IMG/VR virus record: IMGVR_UViG_2617270943_000001
Span: 1 to 26,221 of that record
Source of the DNA: a virus
Taxonomy: Duplodnaviria; Heunggongvirae; Uroviricota; Caudoviricetes
Direction: 5' to 3' (one strand)
Length of the DNA: 26,221 nt
Below the pieces are notes generated by a model. It was not told the DNA's origin and made no database searches. It was given only the letters and a program-made list of their open reading frames with translations. Positions 15,378 through 17,836 of the stretch are shown piece after piece; positions within the stretch are counted from its first letter, which is position 1; each line of letters begins with the position of its first letter. The position numbers were made by a program, and so were the translations under genes.

Positions 15378-15761
15378 ATGCGTGATATTCAGATGGTTCT
15401 TGAGCGTTGGGGAGCGTGGGCGGCTAATAATCATGAAGATGTGACCTGGTCGTCCATTGCCGCCGGTTTTAAGGGATTAATTACTTCAAAAGTAAAATCT
15501 CGCCCGCAATGTTGTGACGATGACGCGATGATCATTTGCGGGTGCATGGCCCGTCTGAAAAAGAACAACAGCGATTTGCACGATTTATTAGTAGATTATT
15601 ATGTAGTCGGTATGACATTCATGTCACTGGCAGGTAAGCATTGCTGCTCTGATGGTTATATCGGGAAAAGGTTACAGAAGGCTGAGGGCATAATTGAAGG
15701 GATGTTAATGGCATTAGATATCCGGTTAGAGATGGATATCGTTGTTAATAACTCTAATTAA
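15378..15761 (+). CDS. quuD: Late-gene antiterminator Q (phage 82/DLP12 QuuD type), 127 aa
   Basis: Translation [24 protein letters not shown]... with Cys-rich zinc-binding region ([16 protein letters not shown]); positioned after rusA and before the lysis genes. Confidence 0.8.
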
Positions 15762-15785
15762 TACGCCAATTATTTACTAAAAGTT

Positions 15786-15813
15786 ATTAAAAATGGGGCG
15801 TTGAAACGCCCCC
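15786..15813 (-). terminator. Rho-independent terminator (minus strand) downstream of the porin gene
   Basis: GGGGCG-TTGAAA-CGCCCC hairpin followed on the minus strand by a U-run (plus-strand AAAAA at 15789..15793). Confidence 0.55.
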
Positions 15814-15965
15814 AAAAATAAAGGGTAATATATAACAGAAGGTTTGTATAGTTAGAAGCAAGGTTGTGCTTCTAAAGGAAGTGGCTTGAGGGAGCCACTT
15901 ATATGTTGGGGAGGCAAAGCCTCCCACAACATATCTTTTAGTAATCAAATTAGAACTGGTAAACC
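15814..15965 (-). ncRNA. Candidate small RNA between the porin 3' end and the minus-strand terminator (IpeX-like position)
   Basis: Three perfect 8-bp hairpins (15853..15874, 15879..15900, 15901..15934) plus the terminator hairpin in under 180 nt, co-directional with the porin gene. The DLP12 sRNA IpeX is reported at the nmpC 3' end; sequence identity not verified. Confidence 0.25.
15901..15940 (+). terminator. Rho-independent terminator on plus strand (candidate tR' of the late operon)
   Basis: Extended hairpin ATATGTTG-GGGAGGC-AAA-GCCTCCC-ACAACATAT followed by CTTTT, about 140 nt downstream of Q. Confidence 0.5.
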
Positions 15966-17032
15966 ATACCTACAGCAACGATATCATCGGTAGCAACGCC
16001 AGATGCTTTCGTGAAATCGCTCTTATCAATCAGGTTGATTTTGTAGTCAACAAAAGTGGACATATTTTTGTTGAAGTAATAGGTTGCACCTACATCAACA
16101 TATTCAACCAGGTCCTGATCACCCCAAACACCCAAGTCTTTTCCTTTAGAATGCAGGTAAGCAACGGATGGACGCAGGCCGAAGTCGAACTGATATTGTG
16201 CAACAGCTTCGAAGTTTTGTGCTTTGTTGGCAATATGGTTATTACCAAAAACAGTCATGTTCTGGGTTTCAGAATAGGTGGTGGCCAGATAGATGTTGTT
16301 CGCATCATATTTCAGACCAGCTGCCCATACTTCAGCATTTTGACCAGAAGCATTCAGACCGTTGTTACCGTAGATAACCTGATTATTAGTGCGATCAGAT
16401 TTAGCATAGGTTGCACCCACGCCGAATCCTTCATACTCATAAGTAGTTGAGAAACCGAAACCATCGCCATTAGCTTCAGTTACTTCATTTCGGTCATTTT
16501 TGCCCTGATACTGAGCTGCAAAGTTCAGGCCATCAACCAGACCAAAGAAGTCGTTGTTACGATAAGTTGCAACACCTGTGGTGCGACCAGTCATGAATAC
16601 ATCTGTTTGGGTCCAGGTATCGCCACCGAATTCTGGCAGAACGTCAGTCCACGCACCGATGTCGTATGCTACACCGTAGTTACGGCCGTAATCGATTGAG
16701 CCGTAGTCACCGAATTTCAGGCCTGCAAATGCAAGACGGGTTTTGTCTTTGGAGGAACCTTGAGATTCAGCGCGGTTGCCTTTGAATTCATATTCCCACT
16801 GACCGAAACCAGTCAGTTGATCGTTGATTTGGGTTTCACCTTTGAAGCCAAGACGGGCATAAGTAGTATCACCATCATCTGCATCATTAGAGGAGAAGTA
16901 GTGCTTAGCATTAACTTTCCCGTACAGATCCAGCTTGTTACTGTCTTTATTATAAATTTCAGCTGCCTGAGCAGACATCGCCATCAGTACTGATGCAGCT
17001 ACAGCAGAAATTGCCACTGTTAATTTTTTCAT
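15950..17032 (-). CDS. nmpC: General porin of the OmpC/OmpF/PhoE family (NmpC/Lc-type phage-encoded porin), 360 aa
   Basis: Signal peptide [29 protein letters not shown], porin motifs and C-terminal VGMVYQF. Encoded antisense to the late operon between Q and the lysis genes, as in DLP12 and PA-2. Confidence 0.9.
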
Positions 17033-17620
17033 CGTGAGCCCTTTTTTTTGAACTATTATTAAAAAATGATGTCACTGCGCGATAAATATTCATCTAATCA
17101 ATGTGATTATTTCAAGATGTAAGTTTTAGTTTCTCATTTAATTTGTGAAGTAGATCTCTATTTTTATCTGAACTTTTTCTATCGAAACCTATTTATGGCT
17201 CTTATTTGAACAAAAATAAACCTATTAGCTAATTTATATTAATGGCTGTTATTTATGGGGGTTCTATAATTCGGCAGTTTAATTTAAATCAACTAAAAAT
17301 AACGTCTGAAATTATTTATTGGTTATTTGTTGAGGTTTTCTTATGTATTTGTGGTGGAGTTTTGAACACTCGGTAGCATTCTCATAAATATCATTCAGCG
17401 GTTTACGTACGTAAAAAATTGGTTATGCTGTTAAGAGTGGTTACTTCGTCACACAGCTTAAACCCGCCGTCGAGCTGGTTTTTCCATTTTTTGAGTCTCG
17501 ATATTAGCTGATAACTCAATACCTGAGTTATTCACTGACTCCGAGTCTGTTACGTTTCTGCTTTTTTGCGATACGTTGTATTCCCTCAATTTACACCCGC
17601 TTTGTCTGCGAGGTGGGGTT

Positions 17621-17836
17621 ATGAAATCCATGGATAAGTTAACAACGGGTGTCGCCTATGGCACCTCAGCAGGTAGTGCCGGTTACTGGTTTTTACAGCT
17701 GCTCGATAAAGTCACGCCCTCACAGTGGGCAGCAATAGGTGTGCTGGGTAGCCTGGTATTTGGCCTGCTGACGTACCTGACAAACCTTTATTTCAAGATT
17801 AAAGAAGATAAGCGCAAGGCTGCGAGAGGTGAATAA
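17621..17836 (+). CDS. essD: Class II holin (phage 21 S-type pinholin) with dual-start motif MKSM, 71 aa
   Basis: Translation [71 protein letters not shown] matches S21; two TM segments; Met1/Met4 dual start. Confidence 0.85.

Follow-up and report, generated by a model that had tools for sequence, protein, structure and literature searches.

What is encoded by four hairpins packed between the antiterminator gene and the porin gene of a prophage? The question is raised by the viral (Caudoviricetes) sequence IMGVR_UViG_2617270943_000001, a stretch of 26,221 nt that we refer to as the window. In this sequence, a 188-bp intergenic gap between the convergent Q gene (plus strand) and porin gene (minus strand) holds a hairpin cluster that starts 34 nt past the Q stop codon, downstream on the strand of Q. 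An earlier note, made from the sequence alone, had read the cluster as two opposed terminators around two further hairpins, which could be either a homologue of the small RNA IpeX or a qut/pause structure. We conclude that the cluster is very probably IpeX, namely, the approximately 166-nt 3' untranslated region (3' UTR) with which the prophage porin (nmpC/lc) mRNA ends; it extends along the minus strand from 15952 to 15787. The IpeX element itself is already known. In the present study, a segment of its unpaired spacer was found to be antisense to the ompC leader, which suggests how this RNA may act.

The IpeX homologue (166 nt; 15787..15952, minus strand) starts at the porin stop codon TAA, contains the four hairpins, and stops where the terminator U-run ends. 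The mature ipeX of K-12 occupies NC_000913.3 574365-574531 on the reverse strand and is 167 nt in length (supplement of PMC8313858). This interval begins at the T of the nmpC stop codon and projects onto positions 15952-15787 of the window (minus strand, 166 nt). When the region was aligned with the gap between nmpC and quuD in the K-12 prophage DLP12, the mean column identity was 98% over 232 columns. The region was approximately 95-96% identical to K-12 ipeX. The seven differences within 167 nt all affected the leader, the bulge, the loops, or the part of the spacer that does not belong to the antisense segment. Phage PA-2 (J02580.1) matched downstream of lc with 95.2% identity over 186 nt. 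In each case the locus is the same, with four hairpins, a spacer, and nearly the same length (166 vs 167 nt). IpeX lies between the porin stop codon and a Rho-independent terminator and adjoins the Q gene, and the gene order quuD - porin - essD/rrrD is common to the window and DLP12. Therefore, the comparison led not only to a relative of IpeX, as the earlier note had considered possible, but to the ipeX locus itself. The comparison with Rfam that the earlier note had proposed was also performed, and no family matched: an IpeX model was not among the matches for the whole window at gathering thresholds or for 15600-16150 at E values up to 10, and the best matches were unrelated (traJ_5, AniS, and others; E > 1). 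In K-12, IS5 splits nmpC 58 nt upstream of the stop codon, whereas the porin gene is intact here. As in PA-2, the porin promoter can therefore drive synthesis of IpeX.

Previous studies described IpeX as a 167-nt DLP12 RNA that originates from the porin promoter within the porin transcript, needs processing, and controls OmpC (PMC12197685). IpeX represses ompC and ompF (PMC5069750; PMC7177473), and has been treated as an Hfq-independent RNA with no mapped interaction (PMC8313858).

Folding arranged IpeX, from 5' to 3', as a short AU-rich leader, hairpin 4 (hp4), hp3, hp2, a 39-nt unpaired spacer, and the terminator hairpin hp1. The AU-rich leader is unpaired at 15935-15952. The 5' stem-loop, hp4 (15901-15934, minus strand), has 8 + 7 pairs, a 1-nt bulge, and a UUU loop (-22.2 kcal/mol). 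It is followed by hp3 (15879-15900, minus strand), an 8-bp stem with perfect 8-nt arms AAGTGGCT/AGCCACTT (-10.4 kcal/mol), and by hp2 (15852-15875, minus strand), a 9-bp stem with perfect 9-nt arms TTAGAAGCA/TGCTTCTAA (-9.6 kcal/mol). The arms of hp1 (15795-15812), GGGGCGTT/AACGCCCC, are perfect over 8 nt and form 7 pairs in the fold (-12.5 kcal/mol). With its U5 tail, hp1 constitutes the Rho-independent terminator of the porin/IpeX transcript (15790..15812, minus strand); the U-rich stretch CCCUUUAUUUUU stands just before it, and hp1 + T5 was called as a minus-strand terminator by the terminator scan. All four inverted repeats were present where the earlier note had placed them (15795-15934). 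Their stems are perfect, as it stated; however, their lengths are 7-9 bp, and 15 bp in hp4, rather than 6-8 bp. Inspection of the sequence also confirmed that the two central hairpins, hp2 and hp3, have no U-run on either strand.

The fold energy of the 168-nt stretch was far below that of dinucleotide shuffles on both the minus strand (-58.5 kcal/mol, z = -7.6) and the plus strand (-66.1 kcal/mol, z = -8.0), with 0/200 shuffles as good in each case. Since perfect palindromes lower the z-score on both strands, this score is uninformative about the strand. Sequence variation was more informative. We collected 91 copies, which represented 27 distinct variants, and aligned 14 of these. The aligned set combined variants that recurred or had a finished genome as their source with four single metagenomic variants and the copy of E. 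albertii (89% identity). The other thirteen singleton metagenomic variants were excluded; several of them carried clustered changes in G-runs that resembled assembly errors. Across the 14 variants, 98.7% of the stem cells of the four stems were paired (97.3% in hp3). Substitutions in hp4 were located in its bulge and loop, and hp1 combined an invariant stem with a variable loop. Six cells at three sites had changed from A-U or U-A to G.U, which pairs only in the minus-strand RNA, whereas one cell favoured the plus strand. Two pairs of hp2 were among those that varied to wobbles paired in the minus-strand RNA only. A single compensatory change was observed, from C-G to U-A at the apical pair of hp4 in E. 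albertii. The pattern of stem substitutions was weak evidence on its own, with 57/500 shuffles as good.

The stems and a part of the spacer were far more conserved than the remaining unpaired positions. Only 10/78 paired columns varied, compared with 23/55 among the other unpaired columns, which served as the reference class (Fisher P = 0.0002). In the spacer segment corresponding to IpeX nt 106-134, 2/29 columns varied (Fisher P = 0.0009 against the same class). This segment is as conserved as the stems, although it is unpaired.

The conserved part of the spacer is the antisense segment (15816..15844, minus strand), which comprises IpeX nt 106-134 when counted from the base after the stop codon and nt 110-138 of K-12 IpeX. 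It was unpaired in both the minimum free energy and centroid folds. The ompC match was found blind, in a homologue search that covered porin loci on 80 genome contigs from many different enterobacterial species, in which the sole non-homologous matches were 15-nt reverse complements directly upstream of many ompC-type start codons. IpeX nt 106-120 (15830-15844, AACCUUCUGUUAUAU) form 15 contiguous pairs, one of them G.U, with ompC -21..-7 (AUAUAACAGAGGGUU), and the helix spans the Shine-Dalgarno sequence GAGGG. IpeX nt 126-134 (15816-15824) add 9 further pairs with ompC -31..-23. On the plus strand, the segment AAATAAAGG[GTAA]TATATAACAGAAGGTT is a near-copy of the K-12 ompC leader at -31..-7 (AAATAAAGGCATATAACAGAGGGTT), with a 4-nt insertion and one transition. 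The near-copy suggests that the seed may have originated through capture of an inverted fragment of the host leader. The leader was at least 99% identical in 5362/5371 matching E. coli genomes. Its core ATATAACAGAGGGTT, directly before the start codon and approximately 15 nt upstream, was identical in many genera, including Enterobacter, Buttiauxella, Lelliottia, Yokenella, Dryocola, Scandinavium, and others; a seed of the IpeX type would therefore fit ompC in many Enterobacteriaceae.

The pairing was assessed by seed enumeration with opening energies, by dinucleotide shuffles, and by cofolding with each leader. The extended IpeX-ompC duplex reached -26.4 kcal/mol, and the 15-bp helix alone had a hybridisation energy of -18.5 kcal/mol, or a net of -11.2 kcal/mol after opening both RNAs. 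The spacer paired with ompC -30..+10 at -25.0 kcal/mol. None of 3000 dinucleotide-shuffled spacers reached this energy, and the P value for run length was 0.001. On ompF, IpeX nt 120-129 (15821-15830) formed 10 bp with -14..-5, again on the Shine-Dalgarno sequence, at a net of -8.5 kcal/mol. Seed enumeration and shuffles revealed no comparable match in the start regions of ompA and the phage porin. When full-length IpeX was cofolded with the four leaders, the gain was -21.6 kcal/mol for ompC, -18.4 for ompF, -7.7 for ompA, and -5.3 for the phage porin. The computed pairing is consistent with repression of OmpC and OmpF, not of OmpA. An in vivo accessibility study designated IpeX nt 128-142 (ACCCUUUAUUUUUGG) as the likely functional region (PMC8313858), and mapping placed these nucleotides over the 3' half of the antisense segment.

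Several points weigh against this interpretation. The ompF match was marginal relative to shuffles (P = 0.27 for run length and 0.03 for energy), because the spacer is AU- and pyrimidine-rich. Covariation had low power since the identity of the variants never fell below 89%, and the 14 variants yielded a single compensatory pair. Two singleton metagenomic variants were changed inside the segment, one to a G.U pair and one to a mismatch in the 9-bp helix. In their 2006 abstract, Castillo-Keller et al. are said to have stated that no complementarity of IpeX to the required region of ompC was found. The same abstract reportedly described repression of OmpC and OmpF, with OmpA as an unaffected control, and a need for Hfq in the case of ompF only; these effects would fit the cofold ranking. 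The effects of IpeX were reportedly first seen with multicopy clones, and the authors are said to have proposed titration of a factor. A review described the mechanism of IpeX as not relying only on complementarity (PMC12197685). The ompC site may have been missed in earlier work, may be insufficient for regulation, or may have been reported elsewhere; it could have been missed because the single G.U pair splits the match into exact runs of 10 and 4. The review, the abstract, and the use of multicopy clones are compatible with a different explanation, in which the assignment to IpeX is right and the complementarity is incidental. The hairpins would then be only terminators and 3' stabilisers, and OmpC and OmpF would be affected without pairing, for example, through titration of a factor. 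The composition of the spacer adds to its appeal, since it favours long runs by chance against AU-rich leaders (8-9 bp on average in shuffles). However, the ompC duplex lies beyond all of the 3000 shuffles and exactly on the Shine-Dalgarno sequence of a known target, its segment resembles a stem in conservation while being unpaired and accessible in vivo, and neither ompA nor the phage porin shows a match. We accordingly regard an incidental match as rather unlikely.

We consider it reasonably likely that IpeX acts through its spacer. In the predicted mechanism, the tail would act while still attached to the full porin mRNA or once released by a cut in the AU-rich leader close to the stop codon. 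Spacer positions 15816-15844 would base-pair with ompC mRNA at -31..-7 and cover the Shine-Dalgarno sequence, such that the ribosome is excluded. The overlapping 10-nt stretch would act likewise, more weakly, on ompF, and the porin encoded by the phage would be spared. hp2-hp4 would most likely stabilise the processed RNA and the end of the upstream porin mRNA, and hp1 would end transcription. The long duplex with ompC may make Hfq dispensable, whereas the shorter ompF match may need help, for which the U-rich stretch before hp1 and the U5 tail would provide the usual Hfq-binding arrangement. Since the start region of the phage porin has no site, a lysogen may in effect swap the host porin for the phage porin. 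In PA-2, replacement of the porin also removes the receptor of the phage itself, OmpC. More tentatively, and with somewhat less confidence than an even chance would warrant, we speculate that the porin mRNA tail is a conventional antisense RNA, with 24 bp over the ompC Shine-Dalgarno sequence explaining both the independence from Hfq and the escape of the phage porin. With the 24-bp match, a mechanism that has been called unclear can be stated as a simple hypothesis. If true and unreported, the pairing would settle how IpeX works and suggest that its seed arose by capture of a fragment of the host leader.

Other readings of the cluster were weighed as well. A late regulatory unit follows Q as a general rule according to the structural paper on Q21, and the site directly downstream of Q is the place of this unit in lambda and in Shiga toxin (Stx) phages. 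The late promoter pR' might accordingly lie just after Q, the central hairpins might be a qut/pause element, and hp4, a strong hairpin followed by CTTTT, might be tR', together yielding an RNA similar to 6S/StxS. By eye, TTGAAA-N19-TAATAT was found at 15801-15831 and a -10-like TATAGT at 15847-15852. The Q protein encoded here is 78-81% identical to the Q of Stx phages, including 933W, and the mapped pR' of this closest characterised Q proved to be homologous to a different part of the window. Differential RNA sequencing located the Stx-phage pR' start 258 nt upstream of tR' (PMC7547250). In the current record of the Sakai Stx2a prophage, tR' (GCCAGCCTCCCCCAGTGGCTGGCTTTTTT) ends near 1,266,602, and the pR' start is therefore near 1,266,345. 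This start is just past TTTACG-N16-TATCAT, overlapping the end of the 144-aa Q gene. The homologous block in the window, 17402..17483 on the plus strand, is probably the late promoter pR' of this prophage, as judged by its similarity to the 933W/Sakai promoter: the putative -35 element TTTACG is located at 17402-17407, the -10 element TATGCT at 17424-17429 (N16), and the conserved box AAGAGTGGTTAC at 17433-17444. It stands between the porin promoter region and the holin gene. The block also follows reverse-oriented inserts in PhiR40_1 and mEp390. Since the pR' block lies beyond the porin gene, the porin-IpeX cassette appears to be an insert that separates Q from pR', and the cluster does not constitute the late regulatory unit. 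Furthermore, 15762-15949 showed no similarity to any Q-downstream region examined, the spacer of the hand-found motif is 19 nt, the T-run after hp4 is variable (3-5 T), and the wobble substitutions favour the minus-strand RNA. The promoter scan called nothing on the plus strand at this site, and it also missed the pR' block. The TTGAAA/TAATAT and TATAGT motifs were rejected as pR' and pause element on the basis of the homology at 17402-17483. We consider a plus-strand late unit at the cluster very improbable, and neither the candidate tR' nor the qut/pause structure of the earlier note was borne out.

hp4 may nevertheless have a role in addition to that in IpeX. In a convergent pair with hp1, it would stop transcripts leaving Q and shield the porin gene from antisense transcription. 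Its fold (-22 kcal/mol) and the T-run behind it, of 4 T here and 5 T in K-12, are compatible with this role, and in mEp390 a bidirectional terminator has been annotated between Q and a gene in reverse orientation. However, hp4 with its CTTTT was not called on the plus strand by the terminator scan, the T-run is reduced to 3 T in the PSUO2 variant, and N-modified polymerase from pR reads through terminators in lambda. Given that only CTTTT follows hp4, it is at best a weak plus-strand terminator for transcripts leaving Q, and it may stop some of them. A genuine terminator pair is unlikely, but deserves some weight. Of the two opposed terminators in the earlier note, the one on the minus strand (hp1) therefore stands, while hp4 as tR' does not. 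Another terminator-like hairpin, GATATCC...GGATATC followed by GTTGTT, is present at 15717-15740 (plus strand) within the last codons of Q and is probably a chance match. The cluster could also consist of dispersed palindromes similar to repetitive extragenic palindromic (REP) elements, or encode the 53-aa product of an open reading frame (ORF) at 15787-15948 on the minus strand. One REP-finding tool reports a REP within ipeX, and the 53-aa ORF is present in the ORF list. However, the sequence occurs in 1-3 places per genome (median 1), and all examined copies are beside a prophage porin and a Q gene. The TTG start of the ORF immediately follows the porin stop codon, the ORF spans all four perfect hairpins, and single-base indels among the variants (columns 9, 14, and 137) break its frame, which rules it out. 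Both of these readings are extremely unlikely.

The very probable assignment to IpeX places the cluster among small RNAs that act on porins or derive from 3' UTRs. MicC and MicF target the same ompC and ompF leaders, and if the predicted pairing holds, IpeX shares with them the principle of an unpaired stretch directed at or near the ribosome-binding site. However, they have no sequence relationship to IpeX. Each of MicC and MicF is encoded by a free-standing gene, is transcribed from its own promoter, and needs Hfq (PMC7177473), whereas IpeX forms the end of a phage porin mRNA and has been described as Hfq-independent. The 3' UTR RNAs of the CpxQ/SroC type are similar to IpeX in sharing the parental terminator and having a conserved unpaired seed just upstream of it, and IpeX has likewise been reported to need processing from a longer precursor (PMC12197685). 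Unlike them, IpeX is prophage-borne, longer, and more structured, with three extra 5' hairpins. The lambda 6S/StxS RNAs are also small structured RNA regions by the Q gene of a lambdoid prophage; however, they are non-homologous to IpeX and on the opposite strand, and the pR' block that corresponds to them here is at 17402-17483. InvR of Salmonella SPI-1 is, like IpeX, a horizontally acquired RNA that represses a major porin of the core genome. In contrast to IpeX, InvR is Hfq-dependent, unrelated in sequence, and transcribed from its own promoter under the control of HilD rather than as a 3' UTR.

As an object, IpeX is ordinary: it is a described prophage RNA, and megablast identified its region in 2502/5426 complete E. 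coli genomes (approximately 46%), with 1-3 copies in each and a median of 1. Every copy for which the context was examined lay between a gene labelled quuD and a prophage porin gene. IpeX was 98-100% identical in the best 80 viral-contig porin loci and at least 93.6% identical in all 36 phage records. Among the porin loci of the 80 enterobacterial genome contigs, it was found only in E. coli and E. albertii. Nothing was annotated over IpeX in any of the approximately 2500 RefSeq genomes matched. The NCBI pipeline names the prophage porin 'ompC: porin OmpC', and the K-12 RefSeq record lists micF without ipeX. Through this gap in annotation and the 'OmpC' label, readers miss a regulator of two major porins, which are relevant to antibiotic entry and phage adsorption.

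The Q antiterminator gene (15378..15761, plus strand; Pfam PF06530, E = 3.5e-53) belongs to the Q21 family, converges on IpeX, and is labelled quuD in genomes with an identical region. The intact porin gene of the nmpC/lc type (15950..17032, minus strand, from the ORF list; Pfam Porin_1, E = 3.6e-152) encodes 360 aa, and its region is 91.7% identical to PA-2 lc at the DNA level. Beyond the porin gene are a phage-21-type holin gene and a lysozyme gene. In a genome with an identical copy, the module is set in a lambda-like prophage adjoining ybhC. The late promoter of this type of Q appears to lie beyond a reverse-oriented porin insert, which corrects the assumption that pR' directly follows Q. 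No convincing tR' was found between the pR' block and the holin start at 17621, where the terminator scan called nothing; a hairpin at 17461-17483, homologous to the first hairpin of the Stx phages, has a stem mismatch. Nucleotide similarity to other Q genes ends at 15710-15737, before the stop codon, and the left edge of the insert is therefore within the ancestral end of Q. QuuD here is 127 aa compared with 144 aa for the Q of 933W/Sakai (L006 1201-1635), and the Stx pR' overlaps the extra C-terminal codons.

Related phages showed other arrangements. The sister phage 1H12 has a Q with 87.5% protein identity, and phage Lambda_ev087 is 88% identical in DNA. In Lambda_ev087 (L004 2894-3050), Q is followed by a different reverse-oriented insert, the gene for the lipocalin Blc. 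A search of 2.5 kb of this phage did not reveal the TTTACG promoter block. Its Blc insert is preceded by a strong plus-strand terminator, AGCCAGCCTCCCCAAAGGCTGGTTTTTTTT, which is similar to tR' of the Stx phages and to the 3' portion of StxS. In the laboratory isolate 434B of phage 434 (L005 908-4499), Q, IpeX, the IS5-split nmpC, and the lysis genes are all of the K-12 DLP12 version. This stretch was marked by its depositors as a region of non-homology, and it was therefore apparently recombined in from the cryptic prophage of the host.

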